A DNA stretch of 64,000 bases from Escherichia coli (GTDB lineage Bacteria; Pseudomonadota; Gammaproteobacteria; Enterobacterales; Enterobacteriaceae). The stretch lies in NCBI RefSeq assembly GCF_003790525.1, contig NZ_CP033636.1; one strand, 5' to 3'. The notes under the pieces were generated by a model, which had not been told where the DNA came from, ran no database searches, and worked only from the letters and a program-made list of their open reading frames with translations. The position numbers and the translations under genes were made by a program. Shown here piece by piece: positions 43,325-61,694 of this stretch; within the stretch, counting starts at the first letter, position 1, and each line of letters begins with the position of its first letter.

Positions 43325-44584
43325 CTACGCTTTTACAACGAGTAATTCATCCCAGCGGGTCGTATATCTCGGTGATAGCATGGCCTGTTTCATACGAAAA
43401 TCCTGTTGAATGCCTTCCCCCAGCAAAAACAGAGCTCCGCGCTTTTCTTTATTGAACCGGTCCATAACTTTCATCAGTGCCTGACTGCCAGGCCTGGCCG
43501 GGCGCTCATCAAACAGGCTGAGTTGCTCTGTGCCGTCAGTCATAGCGGAGAGCATTACCCCAGCTTTCGCATACGCTATCCCGGGTTTGTAAATGCGGTT
43601 CAGGATGGTCATGGCTGCATCAACCAGATCGCGGGTGTCCTGTGTAGCGGTAAGCGGCTCGATACCACAATTGCTGTAGCGGTTTTCACCTTGCGCATAA
43701 TTGCTGCTCTGAATGAAGACTGTGATTTGACGGGTCCACGAGCCATCCTTGCGCAGCTGCTCTGCCGCCCGGGCGGTAAAAAATGAAACTGCCTCATGTA
43801 GCTTGCCTATCTCATTAAGGCGCTGACCAAAACTTCTGGAAACGATAATCTGTTGCCGGACAGGAGGGGATTCATGCAGCCGGAAACATGGTTCGCCATG
43901 CAGTTCCCGCCAGGTACGCTCGATTTCAACGCCAAAGCTTTTACGTAAAAAGCGAACGTCGCTATTATAAAAATCACCGGCAGTGATGATCCCGAAAGCC
44001 GACAGGCGTTCACTGATCTTTTGACCAATACCCCATATTTCTCTGGTACTGATAAGGCCCAGGAGCTTCCTGATCCTGGCCTGATCAGTCAAAACTACAA
44101 CCCCGCCTGTAGCTGCCCATCGTTTGCTCGCATAGGTGCATAATTTAGCCAGGGTTTTGGTGCTTGAACACCCCACACCACAGGTAAGGGACAGATTATG
44201 AAGAAGTGTACTTCTGATCAACCGGCCGTAATCTTCATAATCTATTATCTTGTTCATGTTTTTCAATAACATGAAATTTTCATCTATGCTATATCGACTC
44301 GATTGAGGCGCGAAGCTTTCCAGCGTTTCATGGAAGCGATTTGAGTAGTCTTCATACAAAGTAAAGTTAGAGCTCCGGACTTCGATCTGGTGTTGCTGAA
44401 TCAAATCCCTGCACTTAAAAATTGGGGTCCCACGCTTAATACCAACGCTTTTAGCCAGTTTATTCATTGCAATGACGGACGAATCGTTATTGCTGGCTAT
44501 GATGAGCGGCTTTTTTGCCAGCTTGGGATCCATCGCACACTCAAATGCCGCATAGGCCCCGTTAATATCAACGTGCATGTACAT
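43325..44584 (-). CDS. umuC: Y-family DNA polymerase subunit (UmuC/MucB-like, 419 aa)
   Basis: N-terminal DINGAYAAFE and SIDENF motifs correspond to UmuC catalytic Asp/Glu region; overlaps umuD-like stop. Confidence 0.6.
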   Translation of the reverse strand: MYMHVDINGAYAAFECAMDPKLAKKPLIIASNNDSSVIAMNKLAKSVGIKRGTPIFKCRDLIQQHQIEVRSSNFTLYEDYSNRFHETLESFAPQSSRYSIDENFMLLKNMNKIIDYEDYGRLIRSTLLHNLSLTCGVGCSSTKTLAKLCTYASKRWAATGGVVVLTDQARIRKLLGLISTREIWGIGQKISERLSAFGIITAGDFYNSDVRFLRKSFGVEIERTWRELHGEPCFRLHESPPVRQQIIVSRSFGQRLNEIGKLHEAVSFFTARAAEQLRKDGSWTRQITVFIQSSNYAQGENRYSNCGIEPLTATQDTRDLVDAAMTILNRIYKPGIAYAKAGVMLSAMTDGTEQLSLFDERPARPGSQALMKVMDRFNKEKRGALFLLGEGIQQDFRMKQAMLSPRYTTRWDELLVVKA

Positions 44585-45002
44585 GGCTAAACTGATTCAG
44601 TGCAAAGGTGACGACGCCCCATATCTCAAGGGATTCGGGATTTACACGTATCGGCTTATAGGCTGGATTAGAAGGCATCAAAAGCAGCTCAGGATACGTG
44701 TGTAAGATCTTTACCGTGAACTCTCCATCCACCAGCGCAACGACGATAGAGCCGTGTCGTGCCGTTAAAGACCGATCCACAACCAGAATAGCGCCATCAT
44801 TGATACCGGCATTGATCATACTGAGGCCCGCCGCCCTGACAAAGAAGGTTGAGGGGCGGTTACGGACTACATATTCATGCAAATTTAATTCATTATCTTC
44901 ATGCCCGGCGCACGGACTCATCACTCCACAGCTCAGTAAATCACTGAAAAAAGGTGCCATTTCGTAAGGCTTGTTGCTAATGTGCTCAAGGATAACAGAC
45001 AT
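44568..45002 (-). CDS. umuD: UmuD/MucA-like S24 peptidase-fold mutagenesis protein (144 aa)
   Basis: AAGLSMINAGI (Ser nucleophile context) and later Lys; LexA box upstream. Confidence 0.6.
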   Translation of the reverse strand: MSVILEHISNKPYEMAPFFSDLLSCGVMSPCAGHEDNELNLHEYVVRNRPSTFFVRAAGLSMINAGINDGAILVVDRSLTARHGSIVVALVDGEFTVKILHTYPELLLMPSNPAYKPIRVNPESLEIWGVVTFALNQFSHVHAR

Positions 45003-45023
45003 AGCTACACTCGAATTCTCATA

Positions 45024-45039
45024 CTGTATGTATAAACAG
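45024..45039. promoter_or_regulatory. LexA (SOS) box CTGTATGTATAAACAG upstream of umuD-like gene
   Basis: Perfect CTGT-N8-ACAG, 22 bp upstream of the start codon. Confidence 0.7.
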
Positions 45040-45195
45040 TATTGCGAGTTACAGAGAAAAGATCAAATCTCTCCGGTAACGCTATCGAGCCTGACGAAAA
45101 ATTAAGCTTTGTCACAAACACCAAAAACCATCTTTTACCGATAATGGCGAGCTGGCCTACGAAGAAGGTATACAAGCTAGGATGAAAGGATTCTG

Positions 45196-45813
45196 ATGCC
45201 CCTCCCACCAAATTTTTTATCTCCTGAAGACCAGGCTGAGTACGATGCTTATATGTCAAGATTCAGCGAGATAAATCACTATTATGATTATCACACTGTC
45301 CCCGTGATTGACTGGTTCTTTAAACAAGCAACCGAGGCGTTGCATCACGAACTATGGATACCGGCCTGTACGAGCTTCCTGAACGGGATTGAAACATCAC
45401 TCATGGTTACGTTGAAGTCGCTGATGCTGAAACCAACAGTTAACGATCAGCATGCAGCTCCTGAGCTGGTGGACTTGGAGGGTATCTCCGTAATGAGTAA
45501 TGCCTTACTGAGAAAGGCCAAGCAGGAAGGGGTGCCGGTAGAATTACTTTCATTTCCAGCCGAGCAGGATATGTTGGTTAAGGTAGCAGCCGGGAGAACA
45601 CCTGAAGCAGAAATTGTCAGGCTGAGAAACAACCTATGCCATGGCAACATTCTGGAGTTTATCATGTCTGTTGATATCGGTACTTCAGGACCCATACGTA
45701 TTTTTACGCCTGAATGCTGTCGTGAACTGGCGCATGAACTTTCGTCCATTTCCAGGAATTGGGTGGTAGGTTTGCACAAGTACTGGGTCGACAACAATCT
45801 GATTTCCCCCTGA
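45196..45813 (+). CDS. hypothetical protein (205 aa)
   Basis: ORF track. Confidence 0.4.
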   Translation: MPLPPNFLSPEDQAEYDAYMSRFSEINHYYDYHTVPVIDWFFKQATEALHHELWIPACTSFLNGIETSLMVTLKSLMLKPTVNDQHAAPELVDLEGISVMSNALLRKAKQEGVPVELLSFPAEQDMLVKVAAGRTPEAEIVRLRNNLCHGNILEFIMSVDIGTSGPIRIFTPECCRELAHELSSISRNWVVGLHKYWVDNNLISP

Positions 45814-45962
45814 AGCTCCTTGAACCTTGCTTTCAGAAGCCAGGTGTATGAAACCCTATTGGATAATATTTAAAGCCAAAATATGGGGATCTCGTATTCG
45901 GTGACAGGCATGGTATAAATGATGTGTCTGAGCAACCATCATTGATAATCATGGAGTGAGTC

Positions 45963-46319
45963 ATGAAATTAAAATACCTTCTGTTATGTGCAACTCTGTC
46001 TGTCGCCTTTACCTCCTCTGCGGTCCTTGCATCTGAAAACGGGAAAAAACCGATCCCGGGCAAATCAGATGTGATGGTTGCCGATATTTGTTTAAAACCT
46101 GAAATCCAAAGTGAAACCGATTATAAAAAAACGAAAGAACTGGTAAGGACTGAGTTTGAAGAAAACTTGCCTGTTGGATCTAAAATCAAAGAAAAAGACT
46201 TGAATGCCGTAATTGAAGCATTTGCTACTCGTAAAAGGGACACGCCGGAGCGAGCGGACCATTGCCAAGAAAACGTACGTGAAAGATACTGGGAAATGAA
46301 CCCGGTGAAAGATAAATAA
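45963..46319 (+). CDS. small secreted protein (118 aa)
   Basis: Signal peptide MKLKYLLLCATLSVAFTSSAVLA; GGAG RBS. Confidence 0.45.
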   Translation: MKLKYLLLCATLSVAFTSSAVLASENGKKPIPGKSDVMVADICLKPEIQSETDYKKTKELVRTEFEENLPVGSKIKEKDLNAVIEAFATRKRDTPERADHCQENVRERYWEMNPVKDK

Positions 46320-46569
46320 AATACATTCACGTTGTATAATATAGAGGCTTCAATTCTGAAGCCTTTTTTATTTTCAGATTATTTTGATTCTGACAATAAT
46401 GAAATAAAATTGAGCATTATCGCTTAACACTGGATAAGAAAAAGAGCCATCTTTTATATTGGACAGGTTTGAATTTAAGGAATTTTGGATTCACAGTTTT
46501 CTGCGTTATTAGACGGCAAGGGCAATCTGGTATGATTCACCTAACACACGAATCTGGAAGGAAAAGTAT

Positions 46570-46713
46570 ATGGGTGACCTGGTCAGCAAAAATAGCATTG
46601 ACCGTTTAGAGCGATTTCATTCTTTGCTGGCGGGTCAGTACTGGACGTCCACTGACAGCATCCCTGAAGAGGGTATTGTGGCAGGGGATACACTGCTCAT
46701 TACGTCTTTGCGT
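46570..46713 (+). pseudogene. 5-prime fragment (48 codons) of a backbone gene truncated by IS26
   Basis: ATG with GGAAGGAAAAG RBS; frame runs straight into the IS26 left inverted repeat. Confidence 0.4.
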
Positions 46714-47533
46714 GGCACTGTTGCAAATAGTCGGTGGTGATAAACTTATCATCCCCTTTTGCTGATGGAGCTGCACATGAACCCATTCAAAGGCCGGCAT
46801 TTTCAGCGTGACATCATTCTGTGGGCCGTACGCTGGTACTGCAAATACGGCATCAGTTACCGTGAGCTGCAGGAGATGCTGGCTGAACGCGGAGTGAATG
46901 TCGATCACTCCACGATTTACCGCTGGGTTCAGCGTTATGCGCCTGAAATGGAAAAACGGCTGCGCTGGTACTGGCGTAACCCTTCCGATCTTTGCCCGTG
47001 GCACATGGATGAAACCTACGTGAAGGTCAATGGCCGCTGGGCGTATCTGTACCGGGCCGTCGACAGCCGGGGCCGCACTGTCGATTTTTATCTCTCCTCC
47101 CGTCGTAACAGCAAAGCTGCATACCGGTTTCTGGGTAAAATCCTCAACAACGTGAAGAAGTGGCAGATCCCACGATTCATCAACACGGATAAAGCGCCCG
47201 CCTATGGTCGCGCGCTTGCTCTGCTCAAACGCGAAGGCCGGTGCCCGTCTGACGTTGAACACCGACAGATTAAGTACCGGAACAACGTGATTGAATGCGA
47301 TCATGGCAAACTGAAACGGATAATCAACGCCACGCTGGGATTTAAATCCATGAAGACGGCTTACGCCACCATCAAAGGTATTGAGGTGATGCGTGCACTA
47401 CGCAAAGGCCAGGCCTCAGCATTTTATTATGGTGATCCCCTGGGCGAAATGCGCCTGGTAAGCAGAGTTTTTGAAATGTAAGGCCTTTGAATAAGACAAA
47501 AGGCTGCCTCATCGCTAACTTTGCAACAGTGCC
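46714..47533 (+). mobile_element. IS26 (820 bp), no flanking 8-bp target duplication
   Basis: 14-bp terminal repeats GGCACTGTTGCAAA / TTTGCAACAGTGCC; flanks CTTTGCGT versus GGCGAAGC differ. Confidence 0.95.
46777..47481 (+). CDS. tnpA: IS26 transposase Tnp26 (234 aa)
   Basis: MNPFKGRHFQRDIILWAVRWYCKYGISYRELQEM... recognised IS26 transposase. Confidence 0.95.
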   Translation: MNPFKGRHFQRDIILWAVRWYCKYGISYRELQEMLAERGVNVDHSTIYRWVQRYAPEMEKRLRWYWRNPSDLCPWHMDETYVKVNGRWAYLYRAVDSRGRTVDFYLSSRRNSKAAYRFLGKILNNVKKWQIPRFINTDKAPAYGRALALLKREGRCPSDVEHRQIKYRNNVIECDHGKLKRIINATLGFKSMKTAYATIKGIEVMRALRKGQASAFYYGDPLGEMRLVSRVFEM

Positions 47534-47689
47534 GGCGAAGCTTATCAGCGCTTCCAGTTGCGGACGCTTGACATCCTTGCCGGATGCCTTGTCGCTAAAA
47601 GCGCGATCAACCTTGACGCCTTCCAGTTGCCGTTCCGGGTTCTGGTCGAAGGTGCTGACCCTGATATACCCAATGCGCTGTCCAGTCAT
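47534..47689 (-). pseudogene. tnpR: Tn21-family resolvase tnpR, first 52 codons only, truncated by IS26
   Basis: MTGQRIGYIRVSTFDQNPERQLEGVKVDRAFSDKASGKDVKRPQLEALISFA then IS26 end. Confidence 0.85.
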
Positions 47690-47810
47690 GGAATTCCCTG
47701 CAAAATGTCAGGGAAGACTCTATGACCTTCAACGAGATATGTCAATAAATTCAAAATTCAATCCTATCCTGACGCAATTTACACATGGCATCTGACATCA
47801 GGTTAGGGTA
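47690..47810. promoter_or_regulatory. Tn21-type res site region (resolvase binding sites and tnpR promoter)
   Basis: Position between tnpR start and tnpM stop as in Tn21; boundaries approximate. Confidence 0.5.
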
Positions 47811-47814
47811 TGCC

Positions 47815-48165
47815 TCAACCTGACGGCGGCGAATCACAAGCGTCCGGTTTGACGCTGGTTTCGGTCGCAGTGCTGGCCCGCGCCTGGAAGCGCTGATAGC
47901 ACTCCAGCCCGCAGAAATGCTCCACGTACTCGGCCCCTTCCGGCGTGAAGGCGGCATCGAGCGGGATTTCCTTGCAGCACACGCAGCAACTGGTGCTCGG
48001 TTCATTGGCGTTCATGGTGGTGTTCCTCCATTGGTTGACGAAGCCGACGAAGGCCGCCGCCGGCATCGGCCTGGCGAACAGGAAACCCTGCACCGTGTCG
48101 CAACCCGCCTGCCGCAACCACGCAAGGCAGTCGGGTGTTTCCACACCCTCGGCTACCACCTCCAT
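47815..48165 (-). CDS. tnpM: TnpM (EAL-domain C-terminal remnant of urf2M, 116 aa)
   Basis: [33 protein letters not shown]...; start codon abuts integron IRi as in Tn21. Confidence 0.75.
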
Positions 48166-48190
48166 TGTCGTTTTCAGAAGACGGCTGCAC
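48166..48190. repeat. class 1 integron IRi (25-bp inverted repeat at the intI1 end)
   Basis: TGTCGTTTTCAGAAGACGGCTGCAC. Confidence 0.9.
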
Positions 48191-48367
48191 TGAACGTCAG
48201 AAGCCGACTGCACTATAGCAGCGGAGGGGTTGGATCCATCAGGCAACGACGGGCTGCTGCCGGCCATCAGCGGACGCAGGGAGGACTTTCCGCAACCGGC
48301 CGTTCGATGCGGCACCGATGGCCTTCGCGCAGGGGTAGTGAATCCGCCAGGATTGACTTGCGCTGCC

Positions 48368-49381
48368 CTACCTCTCACTAGTGAGGGGCGGCAGCGCATC
48401 AAGCGGTGAGCGCACTCCGGCACCGCCAACTTTCAGCACATGCGTGTAAATCATCGTCGTAGAGACGTCGGAATGGCCGAGCAGATCCTGCACGGTTCGA
48501 ATGTCGTAACCGCTGCGGAGCAAGGCCGTCGCGAACGAGTGGCGGAGGGTGTGCGGTGTGGCGGGCTTCGTGATGCCTGCTTGTTCTACGGCACGTTTGA
48601 AGGCGCGCTGAAAGGTCTGGTCATACATGTGATGGCGACGCACGACACCGCTCCGTGGATCGGTCGAATGCGTGTGCTGCGCAAAAACCCAGAACCACGG
48701 CCAGGAATGCCCGGCGCGCGGATACTTCCGCTCAAGGGCGTCGGGAAGCGCAACGCCGCTGCGGCCCTCGGCCTGGTCCTTCAGCCACCATGCCCGTGCA
48801 CGCGACAGCTGCTCGCGCAGGCTGGGTGCCAAGCTCTCGGGTAACATCAAGGCCCGATCCTTGGAGCCCTTGCCCTCCCGCACGATGATCGTGCCGTGAT
48901 CGAAATCCAGATCCTTGACCCGCAGTTGCAAACCCTCACTGATCCGCATGCCCGTTCCATACAGAAGCTGGGCGAACAAACGATGCTCGCCTTCCAGAAA
49001 ACCGAGGATGCGAACCACTTCATCCGGGGTCAGCACCACCGGCAAGCGCCGCGACGGCCGAGGTCTTCCGATCTCCTGAAGCCAGGGCAGATCCGTGCAC
49101 AGCACCTTGCCGTAGAAGAACAGCAAGGCCGCCAATGCCTGACGATGCGTGGAGACCGAAACCTTGCGCTCGTTCGCCAGCCAGGACAGAAATGCCTCGA
49201 CTTCGCTGCTGCCCAAGGTTGCCGGGTGACGCACACCGTGGAAACGGATGAAGGCACGAACCCAGTGGACATAAGCCTGTTCGGTTCGTAAACTGTAATG
49301 CAAGTAGCGTATGCGCTCACGCAACTGGTCCAGAACCTTGACCGAACGCAGCGGTGGTAACGGCGCAGTGGCGGTTTTCAT
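48368..49381 (-). CDS. intI1: class 1 integron integrase IntI1 (337 aa)
   Basis: [53 protein letters not shown]... recognised IntI1. Confidence 0.95.
49266..49294 (+). promoter_or_regulatory. integron cassette promoter Pc, variant with -35 TGGACA and -10 TAAACT (PcH1-type); P2 lacks GGG insertion
   Basis: TGGACA-N17-TAAACT inside the intI1 5-prime region; downstream TTGTTA-N14-TACAGT has the inactive 14-bp spacing. Confidence 0.7.
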
Positions 49382-49449
49382 GGCTTGTTATGACTGTTTT
49401 TTTGTACAGTCTATGCCTCGAGCATCCAAGCAGCAAGCGCGTTACGCCG

Positions 49450-49520
49450 TGGGTCGATGTTTGATGTTATGGAGCAGCAACGATGTTACGCAGCAGGGCA
49501 GTCGCCCTAAAACAAAGTTG
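49450..49520. other. attI1 recombination site
   Basis: 5-prime conserved segment end ...GCAGCAGGGCAGTCGCCCTAAAACAAAGTT followed by first cassette. Confidence 0.7.
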
Positions 49521-49547
49521 TACGTAGAACTCGAAGGCAATTTAAGT

Positions 49548-50390
49548 ATGAAAGAAAAGGTAGTTGTTGATAAAGCGATTTCACTCTATACCGAATCATT
49601 CGGCGACCCGGCCCATGAACCCATTATTCTGATCATGGGGGCAATGTCGTCTGCGGTGTGGTGGCCTGATGAGTTTTGTTCCCAACTTGCCAAAATGGGT
49701 CGCTATGTGATCCGGTACGACCACCGTGATACCGGGAAATCAACAAGCTATGAGCCAGGTCAGGCTCCATATTCCGTTGAAGAATTAGCAGATGATGTGG
49801 TTCGCGTCATTGATGGTTATGGTCTGGAAGCTGCTCATTTAGTCGGCATGTCTTTGGGGGGATTTCTTTCCCAGCTTGTAGCTCTCAAGTATCCGAAACG
49901 TGTGAAGAGCTTGACGCTGATTGCTTCAGAACGGCTTGCAGATGCAGATCCGGATATGCCCGCTTTTGATCCTGCCATCATTGAGTATCACCAACGGGCG
50001 GAATCGCTGGATTGGTCTGATAGAGATGCTGTCGTCGCGTATCAGGTCGGAGCGTGGCGAATCAACTCAGGTACTGCGCATGCTTTTGACGCTGAGAAGA
50101 TACAAAACATCGCTGAGTTAAATTTTGATCGCACTCCGAATATCCTGACAACATTCAACCACACTACTTTAGGTGGTGGCGAGAGATGGCTCGGGAGATT
50201 AAATGAGATAGCTGTACCAACTTTGATCATTCACGGCACGGAGGATCCTGTACTTCCTTATGTGCATGGGTTGGCACTGAAAGATGCGATTCGTGGTTCA
50301 AAAATGCTGACACTCGAAGGCACGGGACATGAGTTGCATCATGAAGACTGGCCGAGGATTATCCAGGCGATTAAGGGGCAAACGTCATAG
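49548..50390 (+). CDS. estX: EstX (alpha/beta hydrolase, putative esterase) gene cassette
   Basis: [35 protein letters not shown]...; GMSLGG nucleophile elbow; first cassette of sul3-type array. Confidence 0.8.
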
Positions 50391-50485
50391 CTATCGGTTG
50401 CACCGTACAACAAGTTGCTGCACCGGAAAAATTACTCGCTGCGCTCGCAATTTTCCGGTGAGCAAGGCGTTAGCGCCCACAACGC

Positions 50486-51094
50486 ATGTCTCTCGCACTC
50501 TTTGACTTCGATGGCACAATTACCACTCGCGAGACGATGCCGGATTTTGTGCGGCGGTCCGTGAGCCGACGTCGACTGCTTGTGGGACAACTGCTTCTGG
50601 CGCCGCTCGTGCTTGGGTATAAGATTGGGATCTTGTCTGGCACCCTGATCCGTCGCGTCATCGTTCGCTTCGCTTACAGCGGCATCCCGGCCTCGGTCCT
50701 GGAGGCCCAAGGTCGTGACTTCGCTCAGAGCTACCTGCCCAATACCCTCCGCGGCGAGGCAATGCAGCGCATCGCATGGCACAAAGCGCAGGGGCACAAG
50801 GTTGTCGTTGTTTCCGGCGGACTTGAGGCTTACTTGGAGCCGTGGTGCGACTCGCACGGCGTTGAGCTCATCTGTTCTTCCTTGCAACAGTCGGACGGAA
50901 TCCTAACGGGCCGCTATGAAGGGCGGCAGTGCGTCTTGACGGAGAAGGCTCGCTTGGTCCGTGAGCGCTACGACCTGGCGACATATCCGACCATCTACGC
51001 GTACGGAGACACGCCGGAGGACCTGGATATGCTGGCCATTGCTACTAAGCAGTACTATCAGTGGCAAGAGGTTGGCGTCGCAGGTGGGCGCTAA
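50486..51094 (+). CDS. psp: Psp (HAD-family putative phosphoserine phosphatase) gene cassette
   Basis: MSLALFDFDGTITTRE HAD motif I; second cassette. Confidence 0.8.
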   Translation: MSLALFDFDGTITTRETMPDFVRRSVSRRRLLVGQLLLAPLVLGYKIGILSGTLIRRVIVRFAYSGIPASVLEAQGRDFAQSYLPNTLRGEAMQRIAWHKAQGHKVVVVSGGLEAYLEPWCDSHGVELICSSLQQSDGILTGRYEGRQCVLTEKARLVRERYDLATYPTIYAYGDTPEDLDMLAIATKQYYQWQEVGVAGGR

Positions 51095-51151
51095 CAAGTC
51101 ATTCAAGCCGACGCCGCTTCGCGGCGCGGCTTAATTCTGGTGTTAGACATC

Positions 51152-51943
51152 ATGAGGGTAGCGGTGACCATCGAAATTTCGAACCAACTATCAGAGGTGC
51201 TAAGCGTCATTGAGCGCCATCTGGAATCAACGTTGCTGGCCGTGCATTTGTACGGCTCCGCAGTGGATGGCGGCCTGAAGCCATACAGCGATATTGATTT
51301 GTTGGTTACTGTGGCCGTAAAGCTTGATGAAACGACGCGGCGAGCATTGCTCAATGACCTTATGGAGGCTTCGGCTTTCCCTGGCGAGAGCGAGACGCTC
51401 CGCGCTATAGAAGTCACCCTTGTCGTGCATGACGACATCATCCCGTGGCGTTATCCGGCTAAGCGCGAGCTGCAATTTGGAGAATGGCAGCGCAATGACA
51501 TTCTTGCGGGTATCTTCGAGCCAGCCATGATCGACATTGATCTAGCTATCCTGCTTACAAAAGCAAGAGAACATAGCGTTGCCTTGGTAGGTCCGGCAGC
51601 GGAGGAATTCTTTGACCCGGTTCCTGAACAGGATCTATTCGAGGCGCTGAGGGAAACCTTGAAGCTATGGAACTCGCAGCCCGACTGGGCCGGCGATGAG
51701 CGAAATGTAGTGCTTACGTTGTCCCGCATTTGGTACAGCGCAATAACCGGCAAAATCGCGCCGAAGGATGTCGCTGCCGACTGGGCAATAAAACGCCTAC
51801 CTGCCCAGTATCAGCCCGTCTTACTTGAAGCTAAGCAAGCTTATCTGGGACAAAAAGAAGATCACTTGGCCTCACGCGCAGATCACTTGGAAGAATTTAT
51901 TCGCTTTGTGAAAGGCGAGATCATCAAGTCAGTTGGTAAATGA
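51152..51943 (+). CDS. aadA2: aminoglycoside 3''-adenylyltransferase AadA2 (streptomycin/spectinomycin)
   Basis: MRVAVTIEISNQLSEVLSVIERHLESTLLAVHLYGSAVDGGLKP...; followed by about 60-bp attC. Confidence 0.9.
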   Translation: MRVAVTIEISNQLSEVLSVIERHLESTLLAVHLYGSAVDGGLKPYSDIDLLVTVAVKLDETTRRALLNDLMEASAFPGESETLRAIEVTLVVHDDIIPWRYPAKRELQFGEWQRNDILAGIFEPAMIDIDLAILLTKAREHSVALVGPAAEEFFDPVPEQDLFEALRETLKLWNSQPDWAGDERNVVLTLSRIWYSAITGKIAPKDVAADWAIKRLPAQYQPVLLEAKQAYLGQKEDHLASRADHLEEFIRFVKGEIIKSVGK

Positions 51944-52076
51944 TGTCTAACAATTCGTTCAAGCCGACCGCGCTACGCGCGGCGGCTTAACTCCGGCGTT
52001 GGGCGCACAATAAGGCTCCTTGCAGAGTTGCTTGAAAGTTGTTACGATTCAAATTCAATCATGAGATAGTCAGCAG

Positions 52077-52106
52077 ATGAGCACTTCCAAGAACGCAGAC
52101 AAGTAA
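52077..52106 (+). CDS. cmlA leader peptide (MSTSKNADK) of translational attenuator
   Basis: 9-codon ORF about 100 bp upstream of cmlA1 start, as in inducible cmlA. Confidence 0.7.
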   Translation: MSTSKNADK

Positions 52107-52204
52107 GCCGCAGCAACCTTCATTTTTCGGTTGTTGCGGCGTTCTCATGAATCCTTTTGCTCTACGGGAGCGCCGCCAAATCCTTTGTTCAAGGAGATGG
52201 TTTC

Positions 52205-53464
52205 GTGAGCTCAAAAAACTTTAGTTGGCGGTACTCCCTTGCCGCCACGGTGTTGTTGTTATCACCGTTCGATTTATTGGCATCACTCGGCATGGACATG
52301 TACTTGCCAGCAGTGCCGTTTATGCCAAACGCGCTTGGTACGACAGCGAGCACAATTCAGCTTACGCTGACAACGTACTTGGTCATGATTGGTGCCGGTC
52401 AGCTCTTGTTTGGACCGCTATCGGACCGACTGGGGCGCCGCCCCGTTCTACTGGGAGGTGGCCTCGCCTACGTTGTGGCGTCAATGGGCCTCGCTCTTAC
52501 GTCATCGGCTGAAGTCTTTCTGGGGCTTCGGATTCTTCAGGCTTGTGGTGCCTCGGCGTGCCTTGTTTCCACATTTGCAACAGTACGTGACATTTACGCA
52601 GGTCGCGAGGAAAGTAATGTCATTTACGGCATACTCGGATCCATGCTGGCCATGGTCCCGGCGGTAGGCCCATTGCTCGGAGCGCTCGTCGACATGTGGC
52701 TTGGGTGGCGGGCTATCTTTGCGTTTCTAGGTTTGGGCATGATCGCTGCATCTGCAGCAGCGTGGCGATTCTGGCCTGAAACCCGGGTGCAACGAGTTGC
52801 GGGCTTGCAATGGTCGCAGCTGCTACTCCCCGTTAAGTGCCTGAACTTCTGGTTGTACACGTTGTGTTACGCCGCTGGAATGGGTAGCTTCTTCGTCTTT
52901 TTCTCCATTGCGCCCGGACTAATGATGGGCAGGCAAGGTGTGTCTCAGCTTGGCTTCAGCCTGCTGTTCGCCACAGTGGCAATTGCCATGGTGTTTACGG
53001 CTCGTTTTATGGGGCGTGTGATACCCAAGTGGGGCAGCCCAAGTGTCTTGCGAATGGGAATGGGATGCCTGATAGCTGGAGCAGTATTGCTTGCCATCAC
53101 CGAAATATGGGCTTTGCAGTCCGTGTTAGGCTTTATTGCTCCAATGTGGCTAGTGGGTATTGGTGTCGCCACAGCGGTATCTGTGGCGCCCAATGGCGCT
53201 CTTCGAGGATTCGACCATGTTGCTGGAACGGTCACGGCAGTCTACTTCTGCTTGGGCGGTGTACTGCTAGGAAGCATCGGAACGTTGATCATTTCGCTGT
53301 TGCCGCGCAACACGGCTTGGCCGGTTGTCGTGTACTGTTTGACCCTTGCAACAGTCGTGCTCGGTCTGTCTTGTGTTTCCCGAGTGAAGGGCTCTCGCGG
53401 CCAGGGGGAGCATGATGTGGTCGCGCTACAAAGTGCGGAAAGTACATCAAATCCCAATCGTTGA
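52205..53464 (+). CDS. cmlA1: chloramphenicol efflux MFS transporter CmlA1 (419 aa, GTG start)
   Basis: AAGGAG RBS then GTG; VSSKNFSWRYSLAATVLLLSPFDLLASLGMDMYLP... recognised CmlA. Confidence 0.9.
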   Translation: MSSKNFSWRYSLAATVLLLSPFDLLASLGMDMYLPAVPFMPNALGTTASTIQLTLTTYLVMIGAGQLLFGPLSDRLGRRPVLLGGGLAYVVASMGLALTSSAEVFLGLRILQACGASACLVSTFATVRDIYAGREESNVIYGILGSMLAMVPAVGPLLGALVDMWLGWRAIFAFLGLGMIAASAAAWRFWPETRVQRVAGLQWSQLLLPVKCLNFWLYTLCYAAGMGSFFVFFSIAPGLMMGRQGVSQLGFSLLFATVAIAMVFTARFMGRVIPKWGSPSVLRMGMGCLIAGAVLLAITEIWALQSVLGFIAPMWLVGIGVATAVSVAPNGALRGFDHVAGTVTAVYFCLGGVLLGSIGTLIISLLPRNTAWPVVVYCLTLATVVLGLSCVSRVKGSRGQGEHDVVALQSAESTSNPNR

Positions 53465-53556
53465 GAGAATGTGGCAAGCTATCGCCCAACAAATCGCTGC
53501 AGCCGACCCAAAACCGCTACGCGGTTTCGGTCGGCTGAGCTCAGGCGTTAAACATC

Positions 53557-54348
53557 ATGAGGGAAGCGGTGATCGCCGAAGTATCGACTCAACTATCAGA
53601 GGTAGTTGGCGTCATCGAGCGCCATCTCGAACCGACGTTGCTGGCCGTACATTTGTACGGCTCCGCAGTGGATGGCGGCCTGAAGCCACACAGTGATATT
53701 GATTTGCTGGTTACGGTGACCGTAAGGCTTGATGAAACAACGCGGCGAGCTTTGATCAACGACCTTTTGGAAACTTCGGCTTCCCCTGGAGAGAGCGAGA
53801 TTCTCCGCGCTGTAGAAGTCACCATTGTTGTGCACGACGACATCATTCCGTGGCGTTATCCAGCTAAGCGCGAACTGCAATTTGGAGAATGGCAGCGCAA
53901 TGACATTCTTGCAGGTATCTTCGAGCCAGCCACGATCGACATTGATCTGGCTATCTTGCTGACAAAAGCAAGAGAACATAGCGTTGCCTTGGTAGGTCCA
54001 GCGGCGGAGGAACTCTTTGATCCGGTTCCTGAACAGGATCTATTTGAGGCGCTAAATGAAACCTTAACGCTATGGAACTCGCCGCCCGACTGGGCTGGCG
54101 ATGAGCGAAATGTAGTGCTTACGTTGTCCCGCATTTGGTACAGCGCAGTAACCGGCAAAATCGCGCCGAAGGATGTCGCTGCCGACTGGGCAATGGAGCG
54201 CCTGCCGGCCCAGTATCAGCCCGTCATACTTGAAGCTAGACAGGCTTATCTTGGACAAGAAGAAGATCGCTTGGCCTCCCGCGCAGATCAGTTGGAAGAA
54301 TTTGTTCACTACGTGAAAGGCGAGATCACCAAGGTAGTCGGCAAATAA
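53557..54348 (+). CDS. aadA1: aminoglycoside 3''-adenylyltransferase AadA1
   Basis: MREAVIAEVSTQLSEVVGVIERHLEPTLLAVHLYGSAVDGGLKPHSDIDLL... recognised AadA1. Confidence 0.9.
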   Translation: MREAVIAEVSTQLSEVVGVIERHLEPTLLAVHLYGSAVDGGLKPHSDIDLLVTVTVRLDETTRRALINDLLETSASPGESEILRAVEVTIVVHDDIIPWRYPAKRELQFGEWQRNDILAGIFEPATIDIDLAILLTKAREHSVALVGPAAEELFDPVPEQDLFEALNETLTLWNSPPDWAGDERNVVLTLSRIWYSAVTGKIAPKDVAADWAMERLPAQYQPVILEARQAYLGQEEDRLASRADQLEEFVHYVKGEITKVVGK

Positions 54349-54517
54349 TGTCTAACAATTCGTTCAAGCCGACGCCGCTTCGCGGCGCGGCTTAACTCAA
54401 GCGTTAGATGCCAGATTTGGCGTTGCGTATGCTCACAGAAAATCGACAGCCGCAAGACTGTTTTTGGCAACTCATAGCCACCACTATTTATCCTTCATAC
54501 CGTAGAGGAGATTGCAC

Positions 54518-54850
54518 GTGAAGAACTGGCTCTTTCTGGCTATTGCAATATTTGGTGAGGTCGTCGCAACTTCCGCACTGAAGTCCAGCCATGGATTCAC
54601 CAAGTTAGTTCCTTCTGTTGTAGTTGTGGCTGGCTACGGGCTTGCGTTCTATTTCCTCTCTCTCGCACTCAAGTCCATCCCGGTCGGCATTGCTTATGCT
54701 GTTTGGGCTGGCCTCGGCATCGTACTTGTGGCAGCTATCGCTTGGATCTTCCATGGCCAGAAACTAGACTTGTGGGCGTTCGTTGGCATGGGACTTATCG
54801 TTAGTGGCGTCGCCGTTCTAAATCTGCTATCCAAGGTCAGCGCACATTGA
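54518..54850 (+). CDS. qacH: SMR-family quaternary ammonium compound efflux protein QacH (GTG start, about 110 aa)
   Basis: [27 protein letters not shown]...; followed by aadA-type attC; last cassette. Confidence 0.8.
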
Positions 54851-55096
54851 TCGGGCTGGCATCTAACAGTTCATTCAAGCCGACGCCGCTTCGCGGCGCG
54901 GCTTAATTCAGGTGTTAGTCGGACGCCTACGGCGCCGAGGAAAAAAGAAACCAAACCATTCTTGCTGCCAAAGAGAAAAACCCCTTACGGTGGCGTACTG
55001 GGAAAGTGCGTATCTACGACGCCTTGCCGGTCTCAATGTCATGCCGTCCTCTTTCGAAGGCTGCTTGATGCAAACCTCTCAAAAATCTGGCATAAA

Positions 55097-55783
55097 CTAT
55101 CTTGACATATTCCGATTGAACACCTTCCGAATATCAGCGGCTATCAGCGGGATCTCATCTTTTTTCGTGACGTAGGAGTGGGCATTCTGCTGCAGATGAA
55201 ACTGGCAGCGTTGCCACAGAATTCCAGGGAAGACAGCATCGATTGCCGCGCGCAGTCCTGAGTGGTCATCACTGGTGATCATTCGCAGGCCGTGCATCCC
55301 TCGTCGTACGAGACCCTCGAGAAAGGAACGCCAGTTTACCTCTGCCTCACTGTTCGCGACTTCGGCGTCAAGAATATGCCGATTCCCGCTGTAATCAACG
55401 CCAATAGCCACTAGAAGCGCCTGCTTGACCACATGGGAACCGACGCGAACCGATTCATAGGTCGCATCAAGTACCAAGTATTGAATCTGTCCGACAGGCT
55501 GCGCCTTCCAAGACGTAATCTCTTCATCGAGCTCCTTTGCCAGCCTGCTGACCTGGGACGAGCTGACTTCGGTGCCACAAAGAATTTCGACGATATCCGA
55601 GACCCTGCGGGTACTTACTCCTTTGACATACATTTCGGCGATGGCGAGCTTGAGAGCACGCTCACTGCGCATGCCTTTCTCGATGCAGCTGGGATAAAAC
55701 TCCATCCCGCGAACTTGTGGTACTTTCAAGAGGACTTTCCCGGTCGCAAGATTGAATATTGGATTATTTGGATTTACCAACAA
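55097..55783 (-). pseudogene. IS256-family (mutator-type) transposase fragment, IS440-like remnant
   Basis: ...ALKLAIAEMYVKGVSTRRV... mutator-family core; N-terminal region missing; abrupt drop in GC at about 55775. Confidence 0.6.
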
Positions 55784-56029
55784 ACACTACTATTTAGCTA
55801 CGAAAACTCAAGAGAAGTACACAAAACCTTTTGGAAGTGATGGAAGTTTAAGTCCTCTTGATTATAGTGTAGGTATTGGAACAGGTTTAGAATTAGGACA
55901 TTTCCAGTTTATGTTTGGCTATGATTACCCTCTTAGTAACAGTTCGAAAGATCCAGACCTAAGTCAAGTACGCCAACACAACTTCAGAGCAAGTATAGCA
56001 TATTCATTTAGAAAGCTAAAAAAATAAAA

Positions 56030-56821
56030 CTAACCTAGGGCTTTGGATATTTTCAAGGCATCTGATAAAGACTTAACATCATGGGTGCGGAGATAATCTG
56101 CACCTTTTTTGTATGCATACATTTCTGCTGCAAGAGTTGGTGCTAAACGAGATTTCACATCGGTTCCAGTTATTTTACCTAAGAATGATTTCCGTGACAC
56201 TGCAATCATTACTTGCAAATTAAAAGCTTCTTGAATTTCAGGGAAACGCTTCAAAACAAGAATAGATGTTTCTGGATTAGAGCCTAAAAAGAAGCCCATA
56301 CCCGGATCAAGAATAATTCGTTCACGCTTTACACCAGCCTCAACTAAAGCAGCAATTCTTTCTTTAAAAAATTCCATCATGGAAGTAAAAACCTCTTCCG
56401 GATTCGTTTCAACTTTAGTAGCTGCACCAATTCGCTGAACGGAGTGCATCAACACAAGTTTGCAATCTGACTTTGCCAAGCCTGAATAAATCTCAGGATA
56501 AGGAAAACCTTGAATATCATTAATAAAATCAACCTTTTGTTCTATGCAAAAACTCTGAACCTCAGGTTTAAATGTATCAACAGAAATAGAAATGCCTTTT
56601 TCTTTTAAAGCCTTAATGACAGGTTTGAGTCTTTTGATTTCTTCCACAACGCCCACTTCAGTTGTATCAGGATTACTGGAAGCGGCTCCCAAATCAATCA
56701 CATCTGCTCCATCTTCAACCAAATGCAGAGCATGCTCAATTGCCTTATCTGTATCTAAATAAAGTCCTCCATCGGAAAAACTATCGGTGGTTATATTTAC
56801 GATTCCAAAAATCTTGCTCAT
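56030..56821 (-). CDS. sul3: sulfonamide-resistant dihydropteroate synthase Sul3 (263 aa)
   Basis: MSKIFGIVNITTDSFSDGGLYLDTDKAIEHALHLVEDGADVIDLGAASSNPDTTEV... recognised Sul3; AT-rich segment. Confidence 0.9.
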   Translation of the reverse strand: MSKIFGIVNITTDSFSDGGLYLDTDKAIEHALHLVEDGADVIDLGAASSNPDTTEVGVVEEIKRLKPVIKALKEKGISISVDTFKPEVQSFCIEQKVDFINDIQGFPYPEIYSGLAKSDCKLVLMHSVQRIGAATKVETNPEEVFTSMMEFFKERIAALVEAGVKRERIILDPGMGFFLGSNPETSILVLKRFPEIQEAFNLQVMIAVSRKSFLGKITGTDVKSRLAPTLAAEMYAYKKGADYLRTHDVKSLSDALKISKALG

Positions 56822-57289
56822 ATCATTTTGCTTTGATTACAAAAGTAGCATTTATCTTAATTGACTAATTATCACTTACGCAAATTGACACATTTTCCCT
56901 ATCTTTGCAGCCTAATTTTTTTGTTTTAATTCATTATGAAAACTGATAGGAACTGTCATTTCGAGTTTTTCGCGGTTTTGGGTCAAAATTCGGTTTTTTC
57001 CCCGAACTACGACTGTTTTCGCACCCCGAACAACTAATCCAATCAGAATTTTCCGGCAACGCCGACTCCAAGAAGTGTAATTCCAGTCTATTTCTGCCGT
57101 CAACCCCTGATTCGCGTTAATGCGACAAAGCTCAAACACATAACTCCCCCACGAAGCCATATAAACTCCGATTTCGAGGTGTTATCCTGTTCCGCATAAA
57201 CTTCGTTTTTGGGTATTATACCTACACCAAAGCAAGAAGATTATGGGTCCAAACTTCATTTGTATATTTTGCAAACAAATATCTGCCTG

Positions 57290-57535
57290 TCATATCTGTC
57301 GGAGTGTGGTGATACTCCTTTGCATTAAAAATGCGCTGATAAAAGGTAGTTCAGCAAAAGGCGAAACGCCAATAAATATATCTATAACCGGTTTCGCCCG
57401 TTGATTGGGTATCGCCGTGCTTCCGATATGTTCAATGGCTACGGCATGAGAACCGAAAAAATGGAGCAATTTTATTTTCTCTTCTTCAAAATTCTTTGTC
57501 CAATCCGGGTTATATTCCATAATTTCAATTTTCAT
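57290..57535 (-). CDS. small hypothetical protein (81 aa), possibly a gene fragment
   Basis: ORF track only; AT-rich sul3-associated segment. Confidence 0.3.
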   Translation of the reverse strand: MKIEIMEYNPDWTKNFEEEKIKLLHFFGSHAVAIEHIGSTAIPNQRAKPVIDIFIGVSPFAELPFISAFLMQRSITTLRQI

Positions 57536-57572
57536 GATAGTTTCGTCCTTGCCTCAAAAACCATGTTTGGTA

Positions 57573-58436
57573 TTATACTCCATATCTCTCCGGTGCAGGA
57601 ATAGCCTTTTCTGATGCACGGCTAACAGCTTCCCATTCTTCCCAGGTAGCCATCCGTGCTTTTAAGGTATCCATCGCCAAATCGTATACCATGCTGCCAA
57701 GGATAAGCCTCAAAGGCGGATTATTGCTGGCTACTAATTTCATAAGGGCTTCCGCTGCCAAGGAAGGATCACTATCGACCGAATCTTCGGAATACTGTTT
57801 CGCCAGCTCATCGCGCAGTGTACCGTATGAATCTAATGGATTGCTGTAACTCATCGAAGTGTATAAATCTGTCCAATATCCTCCTGGTTCCACCATAGTG
57901 AGTTTCACTCCGAAATGTTCCGCTTCTTTTGCTAAGGCTTCACTCATTCCTTCCAGCGCAAATTTACTTGCACTGTAAATACCAGACATCGGACCCGAGA
58001 TAATAGCGCCAATGCTTGTAATCTGTATGATATGTCCAGAACGCTGCGACCTCAAATAGGGCATCACTGCCTGACAAACCCAAAGAGCTCCAAAAAAGTT
58101 TGTGTCCATTAGTTTCCGAGCATCGGATTCGTTTAGTTCTTCAATCATACCCATAGTCATGATACCCGCATTATTAACAACAATATCAAGCCTACCGAAA
58201 TGTTTAACTGCTGTTTCAACCGTAGAAAAAACAGCCTCCCTATCTGTAACATCGAGGTTTAATGGCAGTAAGCTCTCTTGATATGTTTCTTCTAGCTTCG
58301 CCAAATTATCGATAGTCCTTGCAACTGCAACAACTTTATCCCCGGCTTTCAAGGCGGCGCATGTAAAAGCATAGCCAAGCCCCTTGCTTGCTCCGGTAAT
58401 AAACCATACTCTTTTATTTTCGCTATTAGGTATCAT
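57573..58436 (-). CDS. short-chain dehydrogenase/reductase (SDR) family protein (287 aa)
   Basis: TGASKGLG cofactor motif, NNAG, and S-x(n)-YSASK catalytic motif. Confidence 0.7.
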   Translation of the reverse strand: MIPNSENKRVWFITGASKGLGYAFTCAALKAGDKVVAVARTIDNLAKLEETYQESLLPLNLDVTDREAVFSTVETAVKHFGRLDIVVNNAGIMTMGMIEELNESDARKLMDTNFFGALWVCQAVMPYLRSQRSGHIIQITSIGAIISGPMSGIYSASKFALEGMSEALAKEAEHFGVKLTMVEPGGYWTDLYTSMSYSNPLDSYGTLRDELAKQYSEDSVDSDPSLAAEALMKLVASNNPPLRLILGSMVYDLAMDTLKARMATWEEWEAVSRASEKAIPAPERYGV

Positions 58437-58581
58437 AGATATTCTCCTTTAGGCTATTATAGAAAGATTATTATAAGCGAAATTAATACCGTTAAACGCC
58501 ATGAGCCCGACAATTTTGAGCACTTTGTTTTGTACTCCCAGAAGCTCACCACTACAAATTATCATCAACCCGGTCCTTTTT

Positions 58582-58841
58582 TCAGTCCACTTGCGGTTTC
58601 ATTGTTACTTTGTCATAGCGTCGTGTCAGAATGCGGCAGAGAACAGCGTTTACTATCAACGCAACACCAGACCAGAAAAACCATGTATTAACACCTATAA
58701 CCTCAACAACCGGACCTGCAACAAGTAAGCCTATCGGCATAGAAAGAGTCATGGCGGTCATCAAAAGGGAAAACACCTTGCCCATCATTTCAGGGGCAAT
58801 GCTTTCTTGAACATAAGCCATAACAGGAACATTCATAAATG
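58582..58841 (-). pseudogene. mef(B): 3-prime fragment of macrolide efflux MFS gene mef(B), truncated by IS26
   Basis: MFS C-terminal helices ...AYVQESIAPEMMGKVFSLLMTAMTLSMPIGLLVAGPVVEVIG...; frame runs into IS26 end at 58842. Confidence 0.5.
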
Positions 58842-59661
58842 GGCACTGTTGCAAAGTTAGCGATGAGGCAGCCTTTTGTCTTATTCAAAGGCCTTACATT
58901 TCAAAAACTCTGCTTACCAGGCGCATTTCGCCCAGGGGATCACCATAATAAAATGCTGAGGCCTGGCCTTTGCGTAGTGCACGCATCACCTCAATACCTT
59001 TGATGGTGGCGTAAGCCGTCTTCATGGATTTAAATCCCAGCGTGGCGTTGATTATCCGTTTCAGTTTGCCATGATCGCATTCAATCACGTTGTTCCGGTA
59101 CTTAATCTGTCGGTGTTCAACGTCAGACGGGCACCGGCCTTCGCGTTTGAGCAGAGCAAGCGCGCGACCATAGGCGGGCGCTTTATCCGTGTTGATGAAT
59201 CGTGGGATCTGCCACTTCTTCACGTTGTTGAGGATTTTACCCAGAAACCGGTATGCAGCTTTGCTGTTACGACGGGAGGAGAGATAAAAATCGACAGTGC
59301 GGCCCCGGCTGTCGACGGCCCGGTACAGATACGCCCAGCGGCCATTGACCTTCACGTAGGTTTCATCCATGTGCCACGGGCAAAGATCGGAAGGGTTACG
59401 CCAGTACCAGCGCAGCCGTTTTTCCATTTCAGGCGCATAACGCTGAACCCAGCGGTAAATCGTGGAGTGATCGACATTCACTCCGCGTTCAGCCAGCATC
59501 TCCTGCAGCTCACGGTAACTGATGCCGTATTTGCAGTACCAGCGTACGGCCCACAGAATGATGTCACGCTGAAAATGCCGGCCTTTGAATGGGTTCATGT
59601 GCAGCTCCATCAGCAAAAGGGGATGATAAGTTTATCACCACCGACTATTTGCAACAGTGCC
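58842..59661 (-). mobile_element. IS26 (820 bp), second copy, inverted relative to the first
   Basis: Terminal repeats GGCACTGTTGCAAA / TTTGCAACAGTGCC; internal sequence identical to first copy. Confidence 0.95.
58894..59598 (-). CDS. tnpA: IS26 transposase Tnp26
   Basis: Identical protein to first IS26 copy. Confidence 0.95.
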   Translation of the reverse strand: MNPFKGRHFQRDIILWAVRWYCKYGISYRELQEMLAERGVNVDHSTIYRWVQRYAPEMEKRLRWYWRNPSDLCPWHMDETYVKVNGRWAYLYRAVDSRGRTVDFYLSSRRNSKAAYRFLGKILNNVKKWQIPRFINTDKAPAYGRALALLKREGRCPSDVEHRQIKYRNNVIECDHGKLKRIINATLGFKSMKTAYATIKGIEVMRALRKGQASAFYYGDPLGEMRLVSRVFEM

Positions 59662-60435
59662 CAATACGAATGGCGAAAAGCCGAGCTCATCGGTCAGCTT
59701 CTCAACCTTGGGGTTACCCCCGGCGGTGTGCTGCTGGTCCACAGCTCCTTCCGTAGCGTCCGGCCCCTCGAAGATGGGCCACTTGGACTGATCGAGGCCC
59801 TGCGTGCTGCGCTGGGTCCGGGAGGGACGCTCGTCATGCCCTCGTGGTCAGGTCTGGACGACGAGCCGTTCGATCCTGCCACGTCGCCCGTTACACCGGA
59901 CCTTGGAGTTGTCTCTGACACATTCTGGCGCCTGCCAAATGTAAAGCGCAGCGCCCATCCATTTGCCTTTGCGGCAGCGGGGCCACAGGCAGAGCAGATC
60001 ATCTCTGATCCATTGCCCCTGCCACCTCACTCGCCTGCAAGCCCGGTCGCCCGTGTCCATGAACTCGATGGGCAGGTACTTCTCCTCGGCGTGGGACACG
60101 ATGCCAACACGACGCTGCATCTTGCCGAGTTGATGGCAAAGGTTCCCTATGGGGTGCCGAGACACTGCACCATTCTTCAGGATGGCAAGTTGGTACGCGT
60201 CGATTATCTCGAGAATGACCACTGCTGTGAGCGCTTTGCCTTGGCGGACAGGTGGCTCAAGGAGAAGAGCCTTCAGAAGGAAGGTCCAGTCGGTCATGCC
60301 TTTGCTCGGTTGATCCGCTCCCGCGACATTGTGGCGACAGCCCTGGGTCAACTGGGCCGAGATCCGTTGATCTTCCTGCATCCGCCAGAGGCGGGATGCG
60401 AAGAATGCGATGCCGCTCGCCAGTCGATTGGCTGA
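59662..60435 (+). CDS. aac(3)-IV: aminoglycoside N-acetyltransferase AAC(3)-IV (apramycin/gentamicin); annotated ATG replaced by the IS26 end
   Basis: Begins QYEWRKAELIGQLLNLGVTPGGVLLVHSS... right after IS26 terminal repeat; ends ...CEECDAARQSIG. Confidence 0.85.
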   Translation, partial: QYEWRKAELIGQLLNLGVTPGGVLLVHSSFRSVRPLEDGPLGLIEALRAALGPGGTLVMPSWSGLDDEPFDPATSPVTPDLGVVSDTFWRLPNVKRSAHPFAFAAAGPQAEQIISDPLPLPPHSPASPVARVHELDGQVLLLGVGHDANTTLHLAELMAKVPYGVPRHCTILQDGKLVRVDYLENDHCCERFALADRWLKEKSLQKEGPVGHAFARLIRSRDIVATALGQLGRDPLIFLHPPEAGCEECDAARQSIG

Positions 60436-60663
60436 GCTCATGAGCGGAGAACGAGATGACGTTGGAGGGGCAAGGTCGCGCTGATTGCTGGGGCAACACG
60501 TGGAGCGGATCGGGGATTGTCTTTCTTCAGCTCGCTGATGATATGCTGACGCTCAATGCCGTTTGGCCTCCGACTAACGAAAATCCCGCATTTGGACGGC
60601 TGATCCGATTGGCACGGCGGACGGCGAATGGCGGAGCAGACGCTCGTCCGGGGGCAATGAGAT

Positions 60664-61689: not shown

Positions 61690-61694
61690 AGTAG

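Follow-up and report, generated by a model that had tools for sequence, protein, structure and literature searches.

An IS26 copy with unmatched flanks between an IncHI2 backbone gene and Tn21 tnpR: a probable member of an inverse pair with exchanged flanks

The IS26 element and the architecture of the locus

The window, i.e., the whole stretch of 64,000 nucleotides of Escherichia coli DNA analyzed here, contains a complete IS26 of 820 bp (46714-47533) between the first codons of a plasmid backbone gene and a truncated Tn21 tnpR (Table 1). The 14-bp terminal inverted repeats of the element, GGCACTGTTGCAAA, are perfect and located at 46714-46727 (+) and 47520-47533 (-). This repeat sequence has four matches in the window, compared to 0.04 expected by chance. 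The sole transposase gene, tnp26 (46777-47481, +), encodes a protein of 234 aa with Asn184, and at least 5000 plasmid records contain an annotated IS26 that matches the 820 bp at 100% identity. In length, repeats, transposase size and near-identity to the references, the element thus has the features of IS26. Both IS26 copies of the window represent a variant differing at 3 nt, with the Asn184 transposase (PGAP WP_001067858.1) and not that of canonical IS26 (WP_001067855.1). The G184N variant of IS26 has been reported as more active.

The 8-bp flanks of the element are CTTTGCGT on the left (46706-46713) and GGCGAAGC on the right (47534-47541). They are unlike each other, also when reverse complements are considered, and mismatch at most positions, so that no 8-bp target duplication surrounds this copy. 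The lack of a duplication is common for IS26 and leaves the identity of the element unaffected. A sequence-only reading of the same DNA had placed the element at 46714..47533, abutting codon 48 of a backbone ORF on the left and codon 52 of tnpR on the right, with flanks that differ, and all of this holds.

Only two IS26 copies are present in the window, and these are inversely oriented. The second copy is flanked by CATAAATG on the side of a truncated mef(B) and by CAATACGA on the side of aac(3)-IVa. These flanks are unrelated to those of the first copy, and the second copy is not its partner. Neither of the 8-mers CTTTGCGT and GGCGAAGC lies beside any other IS26 end within the window. The two copies were also considered as the ends of one composite transposon, which was rejected, as the outer flanks CTTTGCGT and CAATACGA differ and the copies are inverted. 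An 8-bp duplication around such a composite, named beforehand as the observation that would overturn the sequence-only reading, was accordingly not found for the IS26 copies inside the window, past the end of which the resistance region runs on. The second copy adjoins codon 2 of aac(3)-IVa at 59662. The gene is devoid of its GTG start codon and of 53 bp upstream, both of which are present in pS54 and pNDM33-1, and an in-frame ATG located 13 codons inside the second IS26 could yield a predicted aac(3)-IVa fusion protein.

Table 1. Position, strand and basis of assignment of the features at the IS26 locus
Feature	Position	Strand	Basis
Backbone ORF remnant, first 48 codons	46570..46713	+	ORF list; intact homologue in pIMP-20710
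Left flank CTTTGCGT	46706..46713	.	uninterrupted sibling site reads CTTTGCGT followed by TACGTTGA
IS26	46714..47533	+	inverted repeats, database identity, Asn184; identical to second copy in the window
Right flank GGCGAAGC	47534..47541	.	complement of tnpR nt 149-156
Truncated Tn21 tnpR, codons 1-52 of 186	47534..47689	-	156/156 nt identical to full-length tnpR
Tn21 res region, between tnpR and tnpM (presumed)	47690..47814	.	99.75% alignment to R100 Tn21
tnpM (urf2 remnant, DUF3330 protein) of Tn21	47815..48165	-	annotation from pNDM33-1; R100 identity
25-bp inverted repeat, intI1 end of class 1 integron, TGTCGTTTTCAGAAGACGGCTGCAC	48166..48190	.	read directly
intI1, intact, 337 aa	48368..49381	-	ORF list and annotation transfer (pNDM33-1, pSE08-00436-1)
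Second IS26	58842..59661	-	inverted relative to first; sequence identical to first

Insertion sequences are also found in other parts of the window. An IS3-family element of ~1.3 kb (~31882-33188; orfA 31933-32259, orfB 32256-33146; ends TGAACCGCCCCGGG) is inserted immediately behind the stop codon of trhH, ahead of a gene for a 1317-aa TraG-like transfer protein. Direct alignment shows pS54 to be without the element, and in the annotations of pNDM33-1 and pS304_1 trhH is separated from the traG-like gene by 9 bp. The insertion might affect transfer-gene expression. Furthermore, a copy of IS1 at 12031-12798, in the transfer-region part of the window, matches the IS1 of pIMP-20710 at 100% identity over 768 bp.

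The backbone gene and the left junction

The ORF starting at 46570 runs for 144 nt (48 codons) ahead of IS26. The intact gene, which had been proposed for identification by alignment to related IncHI2 plasmids, was indeed found in R478-type IncHI2 plasmids, where it comprises 3336 bp and encodes a hypothetical protein of 1111 aa (WP_000502666.1 in pIMP-20710) without a match to a Pfam or NCBIfam family over its full length. The start codons of the window-lineage gene and the intact pIMP-20710 gene coincide, with 97% identity over nt 1-719. The remainder of the gene is absent from the window. The DNA to the left of the truncated gene is IncHI2 backbone and includes umuDC as well as two small ORFs. 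This flanking DNA is common to IncHI2/IncHI2A plasmids (MOBH, trh transfer genes): window positions 45900-46713 match 769 records, and all related plasmids examined were typed IncHI2A, which bears out the earlier assumption of an IncHI2 backbone.

The junction between backbone and IS26 was found in 317 PLSDB records using a 400-bp junction probe at a coverage of at least 80%; at least four of the matches are near-misses aligned in two pieces, which leaves about 310 plasmids. The right-hand neighbors of this junction vary between plasmids and include a truncated sul1 (pSTM6-275), tnpR at nt 291 (pS54) and, in another record, aph(3')-Ia. The left junction is a lineage-wide scar that is fixed in a large IncHI2 branch. 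The reciprocal left junction, IS26-CTTTGCGT-TACGTTGA, was searched for with a synthetic probe consisting of the IS26 right end, CTTTGCGT and the gene remainder, and is present in 0 records, the gene remainder being contiguous only with the uninterrupted gene. The lineage of the window keeps at most nt 145-719 of this remainder, and only in plasmids without this IS26. A junction IS26-CTTTGCGT-TACGTTGAAG, if found, would indicate that IS26 first inserted at codon 48 in the simple manner and that a deletion between directly oriented copies came later.

The older boundary of the resistance region

The plasmid pSE08-00436-1 belongs to the backbone lineage of the window, with 100% identity up to 46713, but is without IS26 at the codon-48 site. 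The sequence there reads CTTTGCGT directly followed by TACGTTGA, and the gene runs on to nt 719. Beyond this point follow 27 bp, a 38-bp inverted repeat that we take to be of the Tn1721 type, and mcp, a gene for a methyl-accepting chemotaxis protein. Next is the segment IS1-catA1-ybjA-tnpA-tnpR, which is 100% identical to R100 except for a 1070-bp ISApl1 insertion in catA1. Window positions 45565-46713 and 47529-47936 match pSE08-00436-1 at 100% and 99.8%, respectively, with 9038 bp between the two matches in that plasmid.

The IS26 junction is not the entry point of the resistance region, since the gene extends for another 575 bases in siblings that are devoid of this IS26. The claim of the sequence-only reading that the junction marks where the multiresistance region entered the backbone is therefore abandoned, as siblings keep the gene to nt 719 before foreign DNA begins. 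Instead, the IS26 junction is, as judged from the aligned siblings, a later erosion, by which a further 575 bases of backbone were lost.

A simple matching far boundary was also sought in relatives, as had been proposed, and was rejected: in pNDM33-1 the corresponding block is inverted and located beyond a resistance region of ~52 kb, and no simple reciprocal boundary exists in this plasmid. This backbone block, which comes after the 1111-aa gene in R478-type plasmids such as pIMP-20710, is turned around in pNDM33-1 with respect to the 5' remnant of the gene; it encodes a thermonuclease, a cytosine methyltransferase, DUF1173 and DUF4942 proteins, and has tet(A) on its other side. This arrangement suggests an older large inversion, which may involve parts of Tn1721.

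An IS26-bounded insertion of another kind is found close by in pSE08-00436-1. The 8 bp at 47929-47936 of the window, GGGCCGAG, are the unoccupied target of an insertion of ~19 kb in that plasmid, carrying blaTEM-1, aac(3)-IIe, strAB, sul2 and others, and flanked by direct 8-bp duplications. This is a clean composite-transposon signature, whereas the window's IS26 at 46714-47533 has no such signature.

The Tn21 remnant and the right junction

The tnpR remnant is identical to the full-length tnpR of pSE08-00436-1 at 156/156 nt, and the latter gene has a protein accession in common with R100 tnpR. Over 1970 bp, window positions 47534-49500 are colinear with, and 99.75% identical to, Tn21 of R100, and the order tnpR, res, tnpM (urf2), IRi and intI1 is that of Tn21. 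The assignment of tnpM was transferred from pNDM33-1, in which the coordinates of the locus are offset by 25098 from those of the window. The segment between tnpR and tnpM is presumed to function as res on account of its position and what is established for Tn21, and the 25-bp repeat is taken to be IRi from the general structure of class 1 integrons. After intI1 follow estX-psp-aadA2-cmlA1-aadA1-qacL-IS440-sul3 and a truncated mef(B) up to 58841, where the second IS26 begins. The complete transposition module and the mer operon of Tn21 are not part of this arrangement, in which tnpR is cut at codon 52; neither tnpA nor the tnpR 3' half of Tn21 is present in the window. With tnpR reduced to 52 residues and tnpA absent from the window, the remnant of Tn21 is incapable of moving on its own. 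An intact integron is retained, and the IS26 stays a site for further rearrangement.

The exact junction of IS26 with codon 52 of tnpR occurs in 10 records. Its reciprocal, in which tnpR nt 270-149 end in GGCGAAGC and are followed by the IS26 left end, was searched for with a synthetic probe under a strict E-value limit that separated single-piece junctions from two-piece near-misses. It is present in 59 records at an identity of at least 99%, and is exact in at least 30 plasmids (242/242 in a single piece, for 30/30 among the matches listed). The survival of this reciprocal junction shows that the tnpR side goes back to an ordinary IS26 event with duplication of 8 bp, and that the two halves became separated later. 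The absence of a target duplication noted earlier is consequently correct for the IS26 copy as it now stands, but not for the tnpR side. The partner of GGCGAAGC, for which the IS26 ends of the window had been searched in vain, exists in relatives, as a direct repeat in pf77-65 and as an inverted repeat in pS304_1.

Sibling plasmids and inversion isomers

In five IncHI2 plasmids, the two junctions are found on the same IS26, and the alignment runs in one piece up to window position 47815. One of these, pS304_1, is 99.97% identical to window positions 44000-47815, including both junctions. Its first IS26 (+) is flanked by CTTTGCGT and GGCGAAGC, and its second IS26 (-) by GTCGCGGC and GCTTCGCC, after which follow the tnpR 3' half, tnpA and IS5075. 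As GCTTCGCC is the reverse complement of GGCGAAGC, the 8 bp of tnpR recur on the second IS26 as an inverted duplication. In pf77-65, an IS26 lies inside tnpR with a perfect direct duplication (GGCGAAGC on both sides), and the other IS26, next to the backbone gene, has the flanks GTCGCGGC and ACGCAAAG. The sole difference between pf77-65 and pS304_1 is the inversion of the IS26-bounded segment, which is 100% identical. The two plasmids are inversion isomers, and the inversion swaps the flanks of the IS26 copies. The flank combination of the window is that of the pS304_1 isomer.

The same tnpR breakpoints and inverted 8-bp repeats are found in the IncF plasmid NZ_CP116481.1, in an R100-type IS1-catA1-ybjA-Tn21 context. 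This plasmid combines the tnpR breakpoint of the window with canonical IS26.

According to He et al. 2015 (PMC4471558), inverted IS26 copies accompanied by the same 8 bp in inverted orientation are the signature of intramolecular transposition in trans. An insertion with subsequent recombination between inverted copies can produce this pattern just as well.

Past 47815, the window (tnpM, intI1 and the sul3 integron) is unlike pS304_1 and pf77-65, which both have a segment with blaCTX-M-65 there. The full arrangement of the window is found in no PLSDB record and in no complete E. coli genome; the best coverage of window positions 44000-64000 at a single place is at most 86% among the PLSDB records and at most 85% among the complete E. 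coli genomes.

Proposed origin of the two junctions

Taken together, these observations favor a reading, to which we give a probability of roughly 65%, in which the IS26 of the window is a member of an inverse IS26 pair with exchanged flanks, and in which its two junctions come from two separate events. The "missing" duplication would then be explained by the exchange of flanks between IS26 copies. This modifies the earlier proposal of a cointegrate or deletion event rather than a simple insertion: a rearrangement by IS26 is upheld, as the two sides are never contiguous in relatives, while the siblings favor an exchange of flanks by inversion over a cointegrate or deletion.

In the first event, IS26 would have come to lie at codon 48 of the 1111-aa gene, with loss of the DNA beyond. 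The scar is shared among plasmids, and its mechanism is a conjecture; the left junction appears to be old and was probably formed with a deletion. The second event, an ordinary transposition of IS26 into nt 149-156 of Tn21 tnpR that duplicated GGCGAAGC, is documented by the sequences. In the third event, the DNA between two inverted IS26 copies would have been inverted, which is seen in the siblings and presumably applies to the window by shared descent. The segment from the tnpR 5' half through res and tnpM to intI1 would thereby have been placed to the right of the backbone-side IS26, and the other IS26 would have received the tnpR 3' half together with tnpA. The second and third events possibly took place in one step, in which the resident IS26 moved into tnpR by intramolecular replicative transposition, in the orientation that leads to an inversion. 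They may also have been separate, an insertion being followed by homologous recombination between the copies, which would yield the same product.

The partner IS26 predicted by this sequence of events, with GCTTCGCC as a flank and the tnpR 3' half next to it, is not present in the window, which ends inside the resistance region, and would sit beyond base 64000. As the window differs from pS304_1 beyond 47815, later events must be assumed as well. Furthermore, no record contains the full arrangement, and we therefore infer the descent rather than observe it. The element and its arrangement are of a known kind, and the locus is a routine rearrangement scar that involves no new mechanism.

Alternative explanations

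The main competitor, which we regard as unlikely, is an adjacent deletion, in which an ancestor resembling pSE08-00436-1 lost ~8-9 kb, from nt 145 of the backbone gene to nt 157 of tnpR, and was left with one IS26. This could be achieved by intramolecular IS26 transposition in the deleting orientation or by recombination of two direct IS26 copies. It agrees with the colinearity of the window with pSE08-00436-1, which has the same orientation on both sides and 9038 bp between the matches. The missing block would consist of the gene remainder, the Tn1721-type inverted repeat with mcp, and IS1-catA1-ybjA-tnpA-tnpR 3', and from IS1 on it is 100% identical to R100 apart from the 1070-bp ISApl1 in catA1. 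In addition, the tnpR remnants at the IS26 site, which end at nt 557 in pNDM33-1, nt 291 in pS54 and nt 156 in the window, look nested, and unmatched IS26 flanks have been reported to come commonly from deletions (He et al. 2015; PMC4471558). However, plasmids with the same two junctions retain the tnpR 3' half and tnpA on an inverted IS26 located 5.7 kb away, and an inversion isomer of these plasmids exists (pf77-65). An independent deletion ending at the same two nucleotide positions is very unlikely. The version with two direct copies moreover requires a junction of IS26 with CTTTGCGT and the gene remainder that occurs in no plasmid.

At the backbone junction of pNDM33-1 (20601-22032), another IS26, which is inverted and adjoins tnpR nt 557, truncates the resident IS26 at 612 bp. 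This plasmid has a separate junction of the tnpR 3' half, GGCGAAGC and IS26 elsewhere, so that at least two copies of Tn21 tnpR must have been present in its lineage.

Rather improbable, in our estimate, is an intermolecular exchange by which a module of IS26, tnpR 5', res, tnpM, intI1 and cassettes from another replicon was joined to the resident backbone IS26, through either IS26-targeted conservative cointegration or homologous recombination within IS26. The exact junction of IS26 with tnpR codon 52 does occur with another left flank, CGGAACAA, in pWW012, and the same IS26/tnpR junction is found in an IncF plasmid; IS26-ΔtnpR-tnpM-intI1 modules with other cassette arrays have also been reported (PMC6206278). 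However, a translocatable unit needs a direct IS26 at its far end, and the next IS26 in the window is inverted. The plasmid pWW012 is itself an IncHI2 deletion derivative, the left flank of which is more simply explained by a later backbone deletion, and the isomer pair accounts for the junction within a single replicon.

An assembly artefact, in which two contigs were misjoined across a collapsed repeat, would be conceivable for IS26 as a multicopy repeat of 820 bp with two identical copies in the window. It is nevertheless highly improbable, as five independently assembled complete plasmids contain the double junction as a single alignment piece and each junction alone occurs in many more plasmids. 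A simple insertion of which the 8-bp duplication has since mutated is virtually untenable: nothing beyond the presence of a complete IS26 speaks for it, the two sides belong to different genes that lie 9 kb apart in the uninterrupted sibling, and the flanks differ at most positions.

A related and rather doubtful possibility is that codons 50-53 of Tn21 tnpR are a preferred target of IS26 that has been hit repeatedly. Two clearly independent insertions into tnpR lie 2 bp apart, one with GGCGAAGC (nt 149-156) and one with CGGGCGAA (nt 151-158), and the nt 149-156 breakpoint is shared by the two IS26 sequence variants and by plasmids of the IncF and IncHI2 groups. Under such a preference, some of the identical junctions would have arisen by convergence rather than by inheritance. 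The insertion with CGGGCGAA is that of p2HS-C-2 (NZ_CP038182.1; 2281-3100), a simple IS26 insertion in tnpR with a direct duplication, upstream of intI1-dfrA17-aadA5; its distance of 2 bp from the breakpoint of the window may reflect a local target preference.

Comparison with known systems

The IS26 pseudo-compound transposon, or translocatable unit, follows the model of Harmer and Hall. As in the units described (PMC6206278), resistance genes lie between two IS26 in the window, but the copies are inverted instead of direct, and the outer flanks show no duplication. Of the patterns attributed to IS26 inversion and to recombination of IS26 by IS26 (He et al. 2015; PMC4471558), the siblings pS304_1 and NZ_CP116481.1 show the inverted 8 bp on a split gene. 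The single copies with unmatched flanks in the same catalogue likewise resemble the copy in the window, for which the isomer bearing the target duplication is found in pf77-65. Unlike the pairs described there, the window shows one member only, and the other flank of this member comes from an older, unrelated junction.

The combination of IS26-tnpR-tnpM-intI1 with this cassette array and sul3 is known from pWW012, pHNSHP45-2 and pHNLDF400 (PMC5934421). The tnpR breakpoint of pWW012 is identical to that of the window, and the plasmid has the same estX-psp-aadA2-cmlA1-aadA1 array with sul3 downstream (PMC5934421). Its left flank differs, as a further backbone deletion replaced the junction with the IncHI2 backbone gene that is seen in the window. 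IS26-ΔtnpR-tnpM-intI1 modules (KY399741) are similar in that IS26 truncates Tn21 tnpR upstream of an intact intI1, and 8-bp duplications are usually absent around IS26 in IncHI2 plasmids (PMC6206278). Compared to Tn21 within Tn2670 of R100 (NR1), to which the part from tnpR 5' to intI1 is 99.75% identical over 1970 bp, the remnant in the window is without tnpA, the tnpR 3' half and the mer genes, and its integron is of the sul3 type and not In2.

Implications for IncHI2 plasmids

When such plasmids are annotated, an IS26 with unmatched flanks should not be taken for the place where a resistance region entered; in the present case the older boundary, 575 bp deeper in the backbone gene, has been erased. 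The left junction between codon 48 and IS26 provides a stable marker for a large branch of IncHI2 plasmids, with ~310 PLSDB records, and the right junction marks a smaller subgroup, which gives the two junctions practical value for plasmid epidemiology.
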